A stretch of DNA of 64,000 bases, taken from assembly GCA_951406725.2 (NCBI GenBank), contig OX597826.1, positions 35,526,001 through 35,590,000 on the forward strand, in the 5' to 3' direction. The translations under genes were made by a program, and so were the position numbers. Position 1 is the first letter of the stretch. Every line of letters starts with the position of its first letter. Below the pieces are notes generated by a model. It was not told where the DNA came from, ran no database searches, and saw nothing but the letters and a program-made list of their open reading frames with translations. Source of the DNA: Octopus vulgaris (lineage: Eukaryota). This document shows positions 18,542 through 49,062 of the stretch, piece by piece.

Positions 18542-19779
18542 GTGTATATATATATAAATGTTTGTGTGTGTGTATATATGTATTATATGAATATATATGT
18601 ATTATACAAATATATATATATATACACACATGTATGTGTATGTGCGTATTTTTATAAACTAATGTACAAAGTGCATGTGTCAATCTTCAATGATGCATAT
18701 ATTTCTGTAAACATAATTTTAAATATCGAATACTGCATATGTTTGAACTTATAAACTAATAATTATATATATACAAACTGAATACGAGATCTTGTTGTGT
18801 CTTGAGAGGGTTATTATGCCAATGATATTAACACATGTGCTGGTGCAGTGAATGCCAAAGGATATATCTCTCTCAATTTACAAGTTTACATCTCTGTCTA
18901 TATGTGTATATATATATATACATATTATATTAGTAGGTATTTGATATGTACACACAAATATACATATATAATATATGTATCCATGCATATTTCTATATTT
19001 TTCTTGTTGCGTCTGAGTGGAAAGGGGTTTGTTATGTAGAAACATGTTTGCAGCGTAAGCTTGGTATTCTTGAAACAGCTGTCAAGATAAATTATCATAT
19101 AAATTTTCTGCTCACTTCATTTTACATACATACACTGTATGTTCAATCTTATGTAAGTATAGACATTAAGCTAGATACCATTCCTACTTCATATCTATCC
19201 AATACTGAGACATCCACACATACATTTCTATGTACATATAAATATATATACATATGCATACACACATACATATTTACATACATATACGTGTGTGTGTAAA
19301 AAATATATATAGATATATGTTGATATATACATGCATATATATCTTGGACTGTCCTGTCATTAGACAGTATATAAGGATTCGGAAATTTCTTGCCGAACAA
19401 CCACACAGATTATTTGTTTATAGTGATCAAATGTTTGTGTTTACATAAGCACACTCCATCCATTCAACATTACCTGTACAGGTTTAAAGGTGCCACATGT
19501 CAGATGTAGAAAGGATTGCAGAGCAACGTGAAATGAAATGCTTTGCTCAAGAACACAACACAATGCCCGGCCTGGGAATTGAACCCATGATCTAGCAATC
19601 TTGAGTGCAACACCCTAATCACTAAGCAATGCAACTTCACATGTATATATATATATACATACATATATAATGCATGTATATATATGTATGTATACATATA
19701 TATATCTATATAATGTATGTACATATATGTGTGTGTGTATAGATATATATGGATATAGATATAGATATATTAGAGATTC

Positions 19780-20850
19780 TACCTACAATCTGTAGAAAAG
19801 GCATAGGTAGAAACTCTATAAGATGTATCCAGTGTAAGCTATGGACACATAAGAGGTGCAGCAATGTCAAAGGAAGGCTAACTAGGAAGATGGTTTTTGT
19901 ATGTGGCATATGCTCAGGAGCAATAAACACTGAAAATGTGCAGAGAACAACTTCCGTCACTTTCCAGGGAGCAAACCTAGAAGTAGTTGATAGCTTCCAT
20001 TACCTAGGTGACCAAGTCAGTAGCAGGGGCGGGTGTGCTGAAAGTGTAACAGCTAGAGTTAGAATAGCCTGGGCAAAGTTCAGAGAGCTCTTACCTCTGC
20101 TGGTGACAAAATGTCTCTCGCTCAGAGTAAAAGGCAGACTGTATGACGCATGTGCATGAACAGCCATGCTACATGGCAGTGAAACATGGGCCGTGACTGC
20201 TGAGGACATGCGTAAGCTCACAAGGAATGAAGCCAGTATGCTCTGAGGGATGTGTAATGTCAGTGTACATACTCGACAAAGTGTAAGTACCTTGAAAAGT
20301 TGGACTTAAGAAGCATCAGTTGTGGTGTGCAGGAGAGATGACTGTGCTGGTATGGTCATGTGGCGAGAATGGATGAAGATAGGTGTGTAAAAAGTGCCAC
20401 TCCCTAGCAGTTGAGGGAACCTGTGGAAGAGGTAGACCCAGGAAAATCTGGGATGAGGTGGTGAAGCACAACCTTCAAACATTAGGCCTCACCGAGGCAA
20501 TGACAACTGACCAAGACCTTTGGAAATATGCTATGCCTGAGAAGACCTGGCAGAACAAGTGAGACCATAAACTCATGGCCTTTACCAGGGATGTAGCCAG
20601 CCCATTTATGCATACCTTTCCTTCTTTGGACACAAAACTCTGCTTGCAAAGACCTGTTGAGGCAAGTGAAATTGAAATTGAATTCAAAATCGAACCAAAT
20701 CCGACGACTGGCACCCATGCCAACCTCCCTTTATTGGACACTAAACTCTGCTTGCGAAGACCTGTTGGGGCAAGTGAAATCGAAATTGAACCAAATTCGA
20801 TGACTGGCACTTGTGTCAGTGGAGTGCTAACAGCTCCATCTAAGCAGGAT
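19780..20850 (+). mobile_element. 5'-truncated RTE-clade LINE (RT C-terminus with Cys/His finger, 3' UTR)
   Basis: LEVVDSFHYLG, RVRIAWAKFREL, KGRLYDAC, LHGSETW and GRGRPRK.W motifs; stops and frameshifts; UTR has an internal ~105-bp duplication. Confidence 0.9.
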
Positions 20851-20982
20851 CATCAATTCCGTAAACCAGGAGAAAATTAAAAAAACATTTACCCTGTATT
20901 TCTTATACGATGCACCGTTTCATCTACTGTTTAATGGTAAACTAACCTGATTAAATTAAATCAAGCCAATCTACCATAGGCC
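20851..20982 (-). repeat. 132-bp inverted partial copy of the 490-bp unit
   Basis: Reverse complement of 21316-21447. Confidence 0.97.
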
Positions 20983-21292
20983 TGTTATTTCTAGTGGGTG
21001 AATGGCCTATTATGGCCGTTCCTTGATTGTGATGTTGAACTTAAAAATGGTTTATGACTATTTAATTTTTTCCCACTAGGCCGCTGGTGGCAATAAGATT
21101 CTACAAAATTTTTTTGCCACCCTATATTGATTAATTATGAATTTTCTGGTTAGTTCCGTAATGGAATCGGCGGCTTATATTTATTTGCTGCCGATAAATT
21201 TGGCGCGAGTGCGATGATTTGAAAATTTTAGGTCAGATATTGCCGAGGCAGGGATGAGAATGCCTCGTGAAAAATATCTGTTCCGACTTGGC

Positions 21293-21401
21293 TATTTCTT
21301 ACTGATGAATCTAAGGGCCTATGGTAGATTGGCTTGATTTAATTTAATCAGGTTAGTTTACCATTAAACAGTAGATGAAACGGTGCATCGTATAAGAAAT
21401 A
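21293..21401 (+). ncRNA. Type I hammerhead ribozyme (copy 1)
   Basis: Stem I tatttctta/taagaaata; CUGAUGA 21302-08; stem II atcta/tagat plus extended hairpin; GAAA 21377-80; stem III cggtgcatcg; GUA cleavage after 21392. Confidence 0.9.
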
Positions 21402-21782
21402 CAGGGTAAATGTTTTTTTAATTTTCTCCTGGTTTACGGAATTGATGTTATTTTGCGGTTGAAGCTTTTGGCTGTTATTTCTAGTGGGTGAATGGCCTAT
21501 TATGGCCGTTCCTTGATTGTGATGTTGAACTTAAAAATGGTTTATGACTATTTAATTTTTTCCCACTAGGCCGCTGGTGGCAATAAGATTCTACAAAATT
21601 TTTTTGCCACCCTATATTGATTAATTATGAATTTTCTGGTTAGTTCCGTAATGGAATCGGCGGCTTATATTTATTTGCTGCCGATAAATTTGGTGCGAGT
21701 GCGATGATTTGAAAATTTTAGGTCAGATATTGCCGAGGCAGGGATGAGAATGCCTCATGAAAAATATCTGTTCCGACTTGGC

Positions 21783-21891
21783 TATTTCTTACTGATGAAT
21801 CTAAGGGCCTATGGTAGATTGGCTTGATTTAATTTAATCAGGTTAGTTTACCATTAAACAGTAGATGAAACTGTGCATCGTATAAGAAATA
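21783..21891 (+). ncRNA. Type I hammerhead ribozyme (copy 2, G>T in stem III)
   Basis: Identical to copy 1 except at 21872; predicted cleavage after 21882. Confidence 0.85.
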
Positions 21892-22111
21892 CAGGGTAAA
21901 TGTTTTTTTAATTTTCTCCTGGTTTACGGAATTGATGTTATTTTGCGGTTGAAGCTTTTGGCTGTTATTTCTAGTGGGTGAATGGCCTATTATGGCCGTT
22001 CCTTGATTGTGATGTTGAACTTAAAAATGGTTTATGACTATTTAATTTTTTCCCACTAGGCCGCTGGTGGCAATAAGATTCTACAAAATTTTTTTGCCAC
22101 CCTATATTGAT

Positions 22112-22176
<65 letters not shown>

Positions 22177-22883
22177 GAATATGGACACATATCTGCAAAT
22201 AGAAATACACAAATTGCTATACACAGATGAAATGCATATGTGAATTGTTATAAACATGTTTACTAGTATTAATTATAATTGAACAGTAAATGGCTCATCA
22301 CATAAGACATCATAAGACTGGAAAAAGCAAAACAGGACAAATATACACACACATGCCTACATGTATGTACGTACATGTATGTACGTACATGTATGTATGC
22401 ATAAATACATATATATGTTTGTATGTGTATATATGTATATGTGTGTGTGTATATATATATATATATATAGATAGATAGATAGATAGATATTTATCTATAT
22501 ATATAAATATATACACACATACACATACATATATACATGCGTATGTAATAATGACACAGTTTTTCAGAAACATACTTGTCCATACATACATACAAATATA
22601 AATAAATACACACATTCACTATATATCTATGTATAGATATGCACACACACATACATACTCATATACAAAGAGTCACACACACACACATGAACTCTCTCAC
22701 ATGCACAATTTTACACACATAGACTTATATCTTCACACATGCTGCATAAACGTACAGAACTCTAAACTTATTAGCACACATATTAACACATTCTCTTCAG
22801 AATACCCATTCACCATTAATTTGCAAACATATATACACAGGCATGTCTATATATATAGACATACATATGTATGTGCATGTATG

Positions 22884-22919
<36 letters not shown>

Positions 22920-23089
22920 TATACACACATACATACACATGCATATATGCATGTATACATACATATAAACACACATATATACATATTTGTACATATATAC
23001 ATATCCATACATATATATATATGTATATATATATACATATATATATATACATATATATATATACATATTTATACATATATATTCATATG

Positions 23090-23121
<32 letters not shown>

Positions 23122-23149
23122 CACATATATATACGTATACATATATATT

Positions 23150-23203
<54 letters not shown>

Positions 23204-23450
23204 TACATATATATATATACATATATATACATATATGTATGTGTGTACAGTGTGTATCTGTATATCAATCAGTAAAAAAGCTACAATAGTGACTCAGTAG
23301 CAGTTAGTTTCATGTCTACCACTAATAAAACAAACACATGTACCCACAAATAACTACACATACAAACATGGAAACACACACATACATGTTTGCATATGTG
23401 AGTATGCATACATGCATATAGAAAACATGTATATATACATATATATATAT

Positions 23451-23481
<31 letters not shown>

Positions 23482-24008
23482 CATACACATACAGGTAGAA
23501 AATTAGTATACCCACACATATATAAGAATATATGCATATAGTATATATACATGTCTCTATGAATGTATGTGTATGTAGATGTGTATACAGGTTTGTGTGA
23601 GTGAGCATTTGTGTGTTTGTTATACATAAACAAGAACAAAAACAGCTGTAAAACACAGACTAATCAGTTAAAAGCAGATTTTTATATGAAATTTTTGTTT
23701 GTCAAATAAAATAAAACTTCTCTTTGATATTTATTTCTAGCAATCGTTTTAATAAATTGAACTGCAACAGTTGTACTATGATACATAGATATTCAATATA
23801 CATGTTGATATATACATTAGCACACACACACCCACATATATACATGTACACACACACATATATATACATATATGTGATAAATACATATCTATATCATATA
23901 TGCATACACACACATATGTATATATAGCTATATGTATATATATATTTATATGCATATGTATGTATATATGTAGAAGTGTATATGCATTTATAAATGTAAT
24001 TCTATGTA

Positions 24009-32454: not shown

Positions 32455-33375
32455 GCTCTGACACTCCTGTTTTGCCCCCTTACCACGATGAGGTGGGGTT
32501 GGACGATATTCTGTATCGAATTAACTAATCGGTTTAACGGGTTGGAAGTTCTTCAATCTGCTTCCTCAGATAAAGTCTGGCAAATGGTCAAACACAATCT
32601 TCAATCCATGATGTCCACAACACTTGGCACTACTAAGCGAAAAGGCAAAAATCGGATCTTGGGCCAAACAATCAAAATTGCTGAAAAAGTGAAACAAGCT
32701 CGATGCAACCAATCCGATGCCTTCAGACAACTGCGCCGTGAAGCTGCCCGTTCTGCCCACGCTGATTGAAATAAATTCTGGAGGACAGTGGCTGAAGACA
32801 TGGAATGCACCGCATCTGCTGGGAACTCCCGTAAGCTCTACAGCCTCCTTCGATCGAGCACAAAGACAAGCTGGAGTGGTAACAAAACCATTTTGGACCA
32901 GAATGGCGATCCCATCACCAATCTCACTGAGCACATCATCCGCTGAAGAGACCATTTCGCCAATCTGCTGAACCACGACCACCAGCCCCACTTATCTGCT
33001 CCTGCGATAGACGTGATCCCAGCCTTGTATAACTGCCAAACAGCTCCCCCCATGCTTGAAGAGGTCCTTGTTGTTATCAGAAAGCTCAAAAATAACAAAG
33101 CTACCTGCTGAGATCCTCAAGCATAGTGCAAATATACTGGGGCCCGCGATTCATCAAGTTATCATTCGGGTTTGGGATACAGAAACCCTCCCCCAAGACT
33201 GGAGCGACGCAAAACTGGTACCTTTCTTTAAGAAAGGCGATAAACGCTGCTGCAGCAACCACCGTGGCATCAGTCTGATTGACGTTTCTGCCAAAATATT
33301 TGCATCTATTCTTCTGAGACAATTCCAAACAGAACGTGATTCTAAAACAAGACCAAACCAGTGGGGCTGCGATTC
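32455..33375 (+). mobile_element. RTE-type LINE internal fragment (EN-RT linker, RT N-terminus)
   Basis: ELTNRFNGL, EEV...IRKLKNNKA, LPAEILK, PQDWSDAKLVPFFKKGDK...NHRGISL. Confidence 0.88.
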
Positions 33376-34760
33376 GGACAGAGAACACGGCCTTCTACCT
33401 GTTGAAATGAAAGTGTCGGGGATAGAGTTTGCGATCATGCCCACGAAAACCTCTATCCGGTGTAGGGGTGAGAATCTCCACAAATGGTAGGTTTACATGT
33501 CCGTTGAAGATGCTGAAAGCCGGATGAGATCTCCCTGCATCCTCCGTCGTTCGAGTGAAGGAGATGTTCCTTTTACGAAAGCTTAGACAAGCCCGCGCCC
33601 ATTCGGGTGGTCAAATACTGAACTCGTTCCAGGTGCTGAATGTCTTTCTAGAGATATGGGTTTGAGGTATGGATGCAATATTCGAGGATGGGTTGAACTA
33701 GAGTGGCGTATACAGGCCGAATGACGTCCATTGAAAGGGTGGCAAAGGATTGGTGAATGTGGAAAAGATTCCTTCTGGCTTTGTTCGCCACCTTGATACC
33801 CTGCCATGGTGGTTTGAAAGTAGTACCAATCATTATGTTGATGTTTGTGGCCAATAGTCAAGGGAGAGTTTGGAGGTGAACCTATAGGCAAATGGCTGTA
33901 TTTTGAGGCGTTCAAGGGCAGATCCCATTCTTCCGCCTAATTCCAAGCTCAGTTCAGCGACGGTTGGAGTATGTCGTATTGATTCCTAGTTGAGACAAGT
34001 TTGACATCGTCTACAAATAGGAGAACTCTTCTATCAAGAAAATCTGGCAATTCGTTGATATAGAGAAGGAAAAGTTTTGGCCTCAGCACCGACCCTTGGG
34101 GAACGCCGTTGCATGCATTTGTCTCCGCGGAGAGATCTCCATTTATCTGCCCCCTAAAGGTTCGATAGCTCAGGAAGGAAGAAATCCACGAAATCACCAA
34201 TGGATGAATCTTGAATGCTCGAAGTTTGCACAAGGGAAGTCGGTGATTAACTGAGTCAAACGCCTTTACGAAGTCCAAAAATACCGCGCCCACCTTTTTC
34301 ATCCATAGTCCTTGTAATCCATTCTTCAAGAAGGAGAAGATTTGTTAGGCAAGATCTTCGGGGTAGAAACCCATGCTGTGAGTCAGATATATCTTTGTAC
34401 CATATACAGATAATTGTATAATGCTTTGGTTGAAAATAGCTGTGGGAATGACCTGAACATTGTGAATAAAGACAAAGTCGAGTATGTTATTTTCCCCTAA
34501 TTGGACAGGTAATAATTTGTTGTATGGGAAAGTATTTTGTTGTATCAAGGAAAGCGTTCGTATCCCTCCACTTCAGTTGCTTAGTTCCAGGCTGGATATA
34601 ATCCTCAGACCAGCTAAGATTAGTAAAATTAAAGACCCCTGTTAAAAGCATATTAGCCCATGTGCTGGCCTCAGCTAGAATTAGACTTATGAGCAAAAAA
34701 AAAGCACCTCTGAAGTGATCTTCGTGGTTAACCGGGTCAGGATGGCGGTAGGTAATGCTT
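33376..34760 (-). mobile_element. CR1-like LINE fragment (APE remnant plus RT, internally deleted)
   Basis: FLDFVKAFDSVNH, GVPQGSVL, LFVDDVKL, YATLVQPILEYC, GVFNFTNLSW, NILDFVF. Confidence 0.88.
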
Positions 34761-46203: not shown

Positions 46204-46298
<95 letters not shown>

Positions 46299-46303
46299 CA
46301 TCA

Positions 46304-46379
<76 letters not shown>

Positions 46380-46556
46380 CCAGGTCACTGCCTGGAATCG
46401 AACTCATAATCTTGGGGTTAGTAGCCTGCACTTTTAACCACTATGCCATATGCCCATGGACTGTCTTGGGGAAATTTCGAACCTGGATTCTCATTCCTAA
46501 GATATTTTTTATGTTATCATTATTATTCGGGTCACTACCTAGAATCGAACTTGGAA
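46083..46556 (-). mobile_element. tRNA-head/hammerhead-tail element: one near-full and one partial copy in tandem
   Basis: Reverse complement of 25889-26243; hammerhead half deleted. Confidence 0.8.
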
Positions 46557-46574
46557 TAATAATAATAATAATAA

Positions 46575-47412
46575 TAATAAAGAATAATAAAGAAATAGAC
46601 AAAGAAAAATCCCAGCAATGGTTGAGAAGCTCAGGACTCAAAGCAGAAACAGAGGGATTTTTAATTGCAGCACAAGACCAAAGCCTCCCCACCAGAAATT
46701 ACCAAAAACATGTAATGAAAAGAAATATTACAAGTAACTGCAGAATATGTGGAGATGGACAAGAAACAATAAATCATATTATCTCTAGCTGCCCAGTCCT
46801 GGCTAAGAAGGAATATATTCACAGACATGACAGAGTTGGAACTTACATACATTGGAAGCTATGCCAACATTATGGAATAACAACAGAAAAAAGATGGTAT
46901 AGGCACACACCAGAAAAGGTCACAGAAAACGAGGAAAGCAACCATACTCTGGGATATGCCGATACACACAGATAGAGAAATTAAGGCCAACAGACCAGAT
47001 ATAGTTGTCAGAGACCATGAAGAAAAAAAATGCTTTCTAATTGATGTATCAGTACCGGCAGATGACAACGTGTCTCTAAAAGAAATGGAGAAACTCTCAA
47101 AATACAAAGACCTGGAAATAGAGGTAACTAGAATGTGGAATCTGAAAACAGAAACAATTCCTATCATAGTAGGTGCATTAGGCATGATAAAAAAATATTC
47201 AGACAAATACATAACAAAAACACCAGGACTTACAAACACATATAACATACAGAAAATTGCACTACTAGGCACTGCACACATCCTACGCAGAACACTTTCC
47301 ATACAATAACCATCAGAGCATCACAACAAATCACAGCACATACCCAAGGCACACAGAGCTGCGCTCGGTAGTGAAGTGAAAGCACGCTATAAAAATAAAA
47401 CTAAAACTACTG
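46575..47412 (+). mobile_element. 5'-truncated R4/Dong-like LINE (Zn knuckle plus RLE, one frameshift)
   Basis: AAQDQSL, CRIC..ETINHIISSC, HRHD, NRPDIV, DVSVP, K.SKYKDL; both ends in (AAT)n. Confidence 0.95.
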
Positions 47413-47424
47413 AATAATAATAAT

Positions 47425-49062
47425 AAGTTTAGCAATGATATCGGAATGGATTTTGGCCTTGATAAGTGTGCTAAAGCAACTTTTGTAAGAGGCAAGCTCA
47501 GGCAAACAGCTTCTGTTAAATTAGATATTGACACTACCATCAAGGAACTTGACCCACAGGAAAGTTACAAATACCTAGGAATCAACGAAGGAGATGGTAT
47601 ACATCATGCTACTATGAAGGAAAAAATAAGAAAGGAATACTATAGGAGAATAAGGCTTGTACTGAAGACTGAACTCAACTCCAAAAATTGCATTGAGGCC
47701 ATTAACACCCTGGCACTTCCAGTAGTCCAGTACAGTTTTAACATCATTAACTGGAACCTTACGGAACTCCAACGCTTGGACAGGAAGACAAGAAAGTTAC
47801 TGACATCCAAGAGCATGCACCACCCTAAGGCAGATGTAGACCGCTTGTACCTACCTAGAAGCAGCGGGGGAGAGGAATGATGCAATTAGAGCTGTGCTAT
47901 AAGACCTCTACTGTAGGAATGAACAGGTACCTATCTAGTACAAAGGACTGGATGCTGCGACTTGTGTGCGAACACGAAAGCAGCAAAAAGCTACATTCTA
48001 TTGTGAAGGAAGCTTATAAGTTCGAAAGGGAACTAGACATTAACCTTGAATCAGATGAAGAGCCGGAAACCACTGCTACCAAGCAAGCAAAGCGAATCAA
48101 GCAGACTGCAAAAAAGAACGGGCAGAATAAAATTGAGAGGCGGTGGAGCCAGAAGCCCCTGCATGGACAATATATTCTCCGAAGCCAAAATGCTGATGTA
48201 GACCAAGCAACAACCCATCAGTGGCTGAAGAGCTCTGGATTGAAAGCAGAGACTGAAGGTTTCATAATGGCAGCACAAGATCAAAGCTTGTTTACCAGAA
48301 ATTACCAGGCTAACGTTCTCCGAAACGGTACTGACCCTAAATGCAGATTCTGCGACACAGTTGACGAAATGATAGACCATCTCGTTTCGGGATGTCCTGT
48401 GCTGACACCAAACGAATACAAAAATCGCCACGATAGGGTAGGACAGTATATACATTGGAAGATATGTAAACACTACAAATCCGACACTCCTGCTAACTGG
48501 TATGAACACCATCCTCAGCCAGTTGTTGAAGGTAAAGATGTCACCATCCTCTGGGATTTTCCAGTCAACACTGACAGAACGATCAAGGCTAATCGACCAG
48601 ACATAATTGTTAAAGACAGGGAAGAAAATACCTGCAGACTAATAGAAGTAAGCGTCCCCACTGATAAAAATGTATCTGTCAAGGAATTTGACAAACTTAG
48701 TAAATATAAGGACCTGGAAATCGAAATACAGAGGATGTGGAATCTTAAAACAAAAACTGTTCCTGTTATTGTAGGTGCCCTAGGTATGATAAAAAAGGGA
48801 TGTCAGAAACACCTCGACAATATCCCTGGAAAACCATGTCTCAAGGAAATCCAAAAGATTGTGCTAACAAGTACTGCCCACATCCTTAGAAAAACCCTAT
48901 CAATGTAAATGTTTGTGTTTGCATTACATGGAGATATATCTCTACTTCCCCTCCCCAAGCTTTCAGCTATATTTCAACAACTCTTAACCTTCACTTGCCC
49001 TAGGGCGCTGGGTGTGCCCCGGCAGGTGATTGCATCAAACATGCAGATTAAAAATAAATGAC
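47425..49062 (+). mobile_element. 5'-truncated R4/Dong-like LINE (RT C-terminus, Zn knuckle, RLE; frameshift at ~47878)
   Basis: FGLDKC, YKYLG, DRLYLPR..GG, CRFC..HLVSGC, NRHD, NRPDII; 343-aa open frame; (AAT)n flanks. Confidence 0.95.

Follow-up and report, generated by a model that had tools for sequence, protein, structure and literature searches.

The window analysed here, a stretch of 64,000 nucleotides from the genome of Octopus vulgaris, contains a tandem repeat (Table 1) that, judged from its sequence, likely adds a new member to the known metazoan non-LTR retrozymes. It is a young insertion of an abundant, non-coding hammerhead repeat whose family is likely a non-autonomous retrozyme. 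A Penelope-like reverse transcriptase (RT)/GIY-YIG enzyme likely copied it into a (TA)n tract, the template likely being a single-unit and probably circular RNA. The repeat has a period of 490 bp with 2.3 copies and 99% matches at 20982-22118 (TRF). Units 1 and 2 differ by three substitutions over 490 positions, two of them at CpG sites (21204/21694 and 21267/21757 in units 1/2) and one at 21382/21872. The final partial unit comprises unit positions 1-153 and is followed by (TA)n. The doubled unit has a GC content of 36.5% and a longest stop-free frame of 60 aa, so that TRF and the frame analysis agree with the initial annotation of a non-coding tandem of 2.3 near-identical units. The extent given there for the element, 20982-22114, holds for the tandem but not for the start of the insertion, since an inverted arm begins at 20851. 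This arm is identical to unit 1 at 132 of 132 positions (unit 335-466). Its outer end is non-canonical, located at unit 466 instead of about 52 and without a TA tract, and the expected last ~76 bases are missing, through either faulty integration or a later deletion. No further copies of the unit were found elsewhere in the 64-kb window. A target-site duplication is unreadable within (TA)n, and the left flank of the window copy is not TA. ARAGORN predicted no tRNA-derived head in 19000-24000.

Other repeats were observed in the same window. The left end of the element adjoins a short dispersed repeat (20531-20810) with partial 96-108-bp tandem copies. The left flank also holds a decayed LINE-type fragment with a 138-aa open frame on the plus strand (19743-20159, continuing to about 20560), which we take to be RTE-like. 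More broken LINE-like frames, their translations judged by eye, are located at 33017-34344 and 46205-48908.

Table 1 Features of the retrozyme-like insertion and its borders in the window
Feature	Position	Strand	Remarks
Inverted arm	20851..20982	-	Unit 335-466, with the 3' portion of the hammerhead from the hairpin of stem II through GAAA and stem III to the cleavage site
Unit 1	20982..21471	+	490 bp, 36.5% GC, non-coding
Penelope-type 'tail' in unit 1	21033..21134	+	Between the family-wide end sites unit 52 and 153
Type I hammerhead 1	21293..21401	+	Motif, helices, covariation across 18 sequences
Unit 2	21472..21961	+	3 substitutions vs unit 1, two at CpG
Hammerhead 2	21783..21891	+	Stem III altered by G>T at 21872; cleavage predicted after 21882, probably weakened
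Terminal partial unit 1-153	21962..22114	+	Canonical long ('tailed') end
(TA)n microsatellite	22115..22176	.	Putative target site

Both full units carry the motif of a type I hammerhead ribozyme, with CTGATGA at 21302 and 21792 and GAAAC...GTA ending at 21392 and 21882. In hammerhead 1, stem I (21293-21301/21393-21401) consists of nine Watson-Crick pairs. The core (21302-21308) is followed by a stem II of 68 nt (21309-21376) with a 19-bp hairpin, by GAAA (21377-21380) and by stem III (21380-21391), with predicted cleavage after 21392. The 9-bp stem I, CUGAUGA, GAAA and GUA site reported in the initial annotation are present at agreeing coordinates. The description of a complete hammerhead in each full unit applies to the motif but not to the integrity of hammerhead 2, in which the G>T change at 21872 affects stem III. 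This allele occurs in 1 of 169 full units of the family. The self-duplex of stem III amounts to -7.3 kcal/mol in hammerhead 2 vs -17.5 kcal/mol in hammerhead 1, and the predicted cleavage of hammerhead 2 is probably weakened. An Rfam scan, the check first proposed, detected no hammerhead, whether at gathering score across the window or at E<=10 on 20800-22130, probably because of the 68-nt stem II; five Rfam matches to mir-5728 and RalA were set aside as chance. The minus strand of 20000-23000 contains no CTGATGA, and other ribozyme classes were covered by Rfam alone.

The core bases of the hammerhead were tallied in 75 loci with 169 full units altogether. At core position 7, T occurred in 102, C in 26, A in 23 and G in 18 units, and the cleavage base was A in 117 and C in 52 and never G; every other core position deviated in at most one unit of the 169. 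Both variable sites are known as tolerant positions of hammerheads. Across 18 sequences, 91.2% of the cells in the hammerhead helices pair, as opposed to 28-44% in slid controls. Two-sided changes affect 16 of 37 pairs (6 of 9 in stem I), these being counts over related sequences and not independent events, with fewer events than cells. The covariation score was reached by none of 500 shuffles. As far as sequence comparison can tell, the hammerhead is under selection in the repeat family. Folded in isolation, the hammerhead reaches its MFE in an inactive structure, which is more stable than the active fold by 2.9 kcal/mol. Other hammerhead motifs with a long stem II, unrelated to the 490-bp unit, were observed at L039:455-532, where a (TA)n tract follows after about 40 nt, and at L125:4533; they likely belong to further retrozyme or Penelope-like element (PLE) families.

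The repeat is abundant in the 2.8-Gb genome from which it derives. A search with the unit returned 1490 candidates, 40 of which were scored and gave 215 matches on many contigs, with identities of 95-100% among the matches listed. Exact genome counts reached 870 for the 3' 23-mer of the hammerhead and 4044 for the 20-mer of unit 22-41, and exact junctions with (TA)n numbered 956 for the long end and 426 for the short end (one variant), while backwards controls for the exact patterns yielded 0. These counts imply at least about a thousand insertions. The genome-wide dispersal that had been proposed as a check is thereby confirmed, the 1490 candidates and 956 long-end junctions placing the repeat far beyond this locus. 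The loose pattern for hammerheads with a long stem II, a form that escapes Rfam, had 1729 matches in the genome. Sister families of 473-492 bp share 67-96% identity with the unit (57-59% for partial ones) and retain both end sites. Literature searched by title and beginning of the abstract contained no description of a cephalopod retrozyme family or of a retrozyme tail footprint. An explanation of the locus as a local duplication, an ordinary satellite or an assembly artefact with a chance hammerhead-like motif, with which the Rfam result would agree, retains next to no probability: it is refuted by dispersed insertions that number about a thousand and end at fixed sites, by the compensatory changes in the helices and by the ribozyme-like tolerance of the core.

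The anatomy of the insertions was studied in a non-random sample of 109 non-overlapping loci, composed of 23 top BLAST matches, 13 matches to the hammerhead 23-mer and 73 loci chosen by coordinates from unit and pattern searches. Overlapping duplicates, one stray 53-bp match and arms cut by the locus edge were dropped. Among 191 arms, 178 had canonical outer ends, 92 of them at unit 146-166 (long) and 86 at unit 46-57 (short), and 170 of the 178 adjoined TA-rich repeats. The loci contained 81 head-to-head pairs of arms, two of which were cut, and no tail-to-tail pair. In the 79 complete pairs, one long end was combined with one short end in 68 cases and two alike ends in none; ten pairs had one odd end and one pair had two. 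Arms reached 5156 bp and up to about ten units, and both arms exceeded one unit in 24 pairs. The sites at unit ~52 and ~153 probably mark the starts of reverse transcription. Copies ending at the cleavage site are ruled out, no outer end being located at unit 400-425 and no inner end at 408-416. The initial expectation of dispersed, circularly permuted copies is correct in its first part; random permutation is ruled out by the two fixed outer end sites. Inner ends were enriched at unit 412-445, with 27 of 178 against 13.8 expected (p 0.0008, scan-corrected 0.037); for arms longer than 490 nt, the 12 of 104 against 7.9 expected were not significant. Some templates may accordingly be cleaved linear RNA.

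Two end sites, head-to-head arms and (TA)n targets form a footprint that supports a Penelope-type enzyme, as the initial annotation had suggested with Penelope-like mobilisation. It is on this insertion footprint that the enzyme copying the 490-bp unit is provisionally assigned to the Penelope class. Insertions of endonuclease-bearing (EN+) PLEs similarly include partial tandems, an inverted 5'-truncated copy and (TA)n targets, with a tail of 30-40 bp often at one end only, in the part of the article at hand (Craig et al. 2021; PMC8557442). In vitro, a PLE enzyme cuts and extends both target strands, and the tail is delimited by two start sites inside the RNA (Frangieh et al. 2024; PMC11167929). 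The octopus family has the same partial tandems, inverted copy and (TA)n targets, a tail at one end only in 68 of 79 complete pairs, and two putative internal start sites; cutting and extension of both target strands would apply to it as well. Unlike the EN+ PLEs in these excerpts, it has no ORF, its tail measures about 100 nt rather than 30-40, and its hammerhead has full stems and precedes the short end by about 130 nt.

The genome contains 6136 GIY-YIG candidates, and four PLE families were examined closely. Three of them are young, with open ORFs of 781, 811 and 775 aa and many near-identical copies. The 781-aa ORF encodes RT and GIY-YIG domains (Pfam), and the 811- and 775-aa ORFs were assigned by their tblastn likeness to it. 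All four families end in (TA)n at two sites 30-43 nt apart, against about 100 nt (unit ~52 to ~153) in the retrozyme-like family, and six of six head-to-head PLE pairs (L096, L101, L191, L206, L212 and L213) have one of each end. An autonomous partner was sought with blastn and with an nhmmer profile of 14 unit variants in 99 PLE loci (L031-L060, L091-L101 and L191-L248). No PLE-borne match was found, and two strong profile matches were neighbouring retrozyme insertions. In the loci examined, no RT and GIY-YIG ORF was contiguous with the repeat, and nearby fragments of PLE ORFs were located outside the arms. It is improbable that the unit is the pseudo-LTR of an unsampled autonomous Penelope family and the arrays its truncated ends. 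The insertion anatomy is the same as that of PLEs, some Xenopus retrozymes are homologous to pLTRs in the available part of the article (10.64898/2026.07.22.740005), and the close examination covered four families among 6136 candidates. This explanation conflicts with the tandem-unit make-up of the arms in the loci of the family (109) and of sister variants (16), with arms of up to 5156 bp of pure repeat, with the position of PLE ORF fragments outside the arms and with the lack of a profile match to PLE ends in the 99 loci.

Further features of the resident PLEs were recorded. Retrozyme insertions at L072:2-1648 and L085 are located within the very (TA)n tract in which a PLE copy terminates, which implies that both kinds of element use the same targets. 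Three young PLE families have a second frame of 479, 495 and 557 aa (L094:768-2207, L241:1753-3240 and L246:775-2448), upstream of the RT-endonuclease frame and overlapping it; the 479-aa frame showed no convincing Pfam family. Canonical EN+ PLEs have a single ORF in the literature excerpts, and a figure legend there mentions a frameshifted ORF1 as optional. A regular expression detected no canonical hammerhead at the ends of the 781-, 811- and 775-aa families (L091, L094, L101 and L241-L248). The family of L096 has a minimal hammerhead variant with a changed core at L096:4806.

The nature of the template was deduced from variants shared between units and arms. Read-through of a donor array should produce variants that are shared at one unit rank, and a single-unit template variants that are fixed in all units. 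The two arms of one insertion are 0.5% apart vs a median of 4.5% to other loci, and among 57 loci, no other arm was closer than the partner arm in 46, with the partner strictly the closest in 27. Fourteen private variants, found in 12 of 44 testable loci, were fixed in all units of both arms. Rank-specific shared variants comprised two private ones and one non-private one (L105, L154 and L189); two further rank-specific sites in L005 reflect a haplotype switch. Disagreements between arms, at 91 sites, were taken as post-insertion changes. Because 14 locus-private variants are fixed in both arms vs 2-3 that are rank-specific, the data favour a single-unit, probably circular RNA as the template. 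Arrays of 7-10 units showed 0-2 substitutions between units; 108 of 119 minority alleles within arrays were singletons, and 3 of 116 recurred in a second locus. Such near-uniform arrays and non-recurring alleles call for a monomer bottleneck, which gene conversion within arrays could mimic. No inserted bases were found at unit 411/412 in 169 units. Three loci (L008, L005 and L128) are mosaics of haplotypes. In L008, one full unit (L008:521-1010) of an otherwise uniform array belongs to another subfamily haplotype (unit 71-411), and both switch points are located within 412-490/1-70, an interval that includes the cleavage site. The initial interpretation as a recent rolling-circle RT product thus stands as regards a young, dispersed tandem of retrozyme type, and for the single-unit template the evidence leans the same way.

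A Penelope-driven process could also start from a linear read-through multimer, or from cleaved linear monomers joined by template jumps, with circles absent or a side product. We regard this as unlikely. It would account for the enrichment of inner ends 6-33 nt 3' of the cleavage site, for the 2-3 variants common to both arms at one rank and for the unit of another haplotype inside L008. Moreover, the anole PLE uses mainly uncleaved RNA in vitro in the part of the study at hand (PMC11167929). Fixed private variants nevertheless outnumber rank-specific ones, the uniformity of the 7-10-unit arrays and the few recurring alleles would still need a monomer bottleneck, no extra bases occur at 411/412, and no inner end is located at 408-416.

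The preferred single-unit, probably circular RNA is predicted to be highly structured. The circular monomer has a predicted MFE of -147 kcal/mol (z -5.9) with 64% of its bases paired; for the minus strand, too, the fold is more stable than in shuffled sequences (z -5.7). Among the predicted pairs beyond the ribozyme, 117 in number, pairing persists in 91.5% of the cells, and 14 pairs show two-sided change; the underlying structure was derived from the window's own sequence and is thereby favoured over slid controls. The end sites at unit 52 and 153 are mostly unpaired in the circular folds of 11 variants, and two conserved hairpins are located between them. We speculate that these hairpins might shorten the ~100-nt tail to the spacing of PLEs. 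A helix proposed by RNAalifold between the hammerhead core and unit 3-15 was set aside, 6 of 17 rows being without the competing tail strand. In a read-through transcript from the left, all 132 nt of the inverted arm of the window copy would, by prediction, base-pair with hammerhead 1. Owing to this pairing and to the stem III mismatch of hammerhead 2, it is doubtful that the window copy is more than a poor source of clean 490-nt monomer, and the release of an exact 490-nt monomer predicted from this copy in the initial annotation becomes doubtful as well. With an incomplete short-end arm and one mutated hammerhead, the window copy likely represents a dead end and not a master copy.

For the family as a whole, the following course of events may be proposed. 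Tandem copies would be transcribed, and the hammerheads would cut the transcript at unit 411/412, the cleavage being predicted from motif and covariation. The monomer would then be closed into a 490-nt circle by a ligation assumed by analogy with known retrozymes. Within a (TA)n tract, a Penelope protein, likely as a dimer, would nick each of the two strands; the DNA ends so produced would prime in one RNA, one at unit ~153 and the other at ~52, as the behaviour of the anole PLE in vitro suggests by analogy. Both cDNAs would run round the unit over variable lengths, up to about ten turns, and the joining of their inner ends would result in head-to-head arms. More tentatively, and with less than even likelihood in our estimation, the family could be a long-lived retrozyme lineage that mimics Penelope in structure and is no fragment of a Penelope end: its RNA circle would fold the ~100-nt tail to Penelope geometry, a Penelope RT dimer would prime both nicked DNA strands on this one circle, and both subunits would roll round it.

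Several traits link the 490-bp family to the non-LTR retrozymes described so far. Retrozyme circles of 170-400 nt are reported, and PLEs are named 'a strong candidate' mobiliser (Cervera and de la Pena 2020; PMC7229834). Li, Clavereau and Pollet (2026; 10.64898/2026.07.22.740005) list consensus units of 51-972 bp, a range that includes 490, and the initial impression of an unusually large unit is therefore dropped. In the portion of their article at hand, one of nine Xenopus retrozyme dimers cleaved in vitro and eight did not, 24 of 57 Xenopus families showed homology to transposable elements including PLE ends, and mobilisation was left to future work. Dispersed tandems with one type I hammerhead per unit and no ORF, a GC content below 45-50%, a self-paired monomer (predicted here) and co-existence with PLEs are features shared with the retrozymes in the available parts of both sources. 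The arms likewise consist of tandem units and are not LTR-flanked. Unlike the known non-LTR retrozymes of these excerpts, the octopus family has a 68-nt stem II that is missed by Rfam, and unlike the Xenopus retrozymes with homology to transposable elements, its unit has no homology to the sampled resident PLE ends. No description of fixed tail ends or of head-to-head arms occurs in the parts of the two articles at hand, whose supplements may bear on the anatomy. With viroids and viroid-like circular RNAs, the family shares a small, non-coding, self-paired RNA with a hammerhead, as predicted here from DNA. Unlike viroids, it is genome-integrated through DNA and has the hammerhead motif in one polarity only.

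The copying enzyme and the template of animal retrozymes are proposed but not demonstrated in the portions of PMC7229834 and 10.64898/2026.07.22.740005 at hand. For the 490-bp family, a direct PLE footprint is now combined with evidence at the population level for a single RNA as the template of both arms. The hammerhead of the anole PLE is dispensable for insertion in vitro in the excerpt of Frangieh et al. (2024; PMC11167929). Given the footprint and the resident young PLEs with open ORFs, the question is testable with the in vitro PLE assay published there. If the reading of the retrozyme lineage as a structural mimic were true, twin rolling-circle target-primed reverse transcription would be recorded about a thousand times in the octopus genome, and the open ORFs for rebuilding the process in vitro would be located in the same genome.
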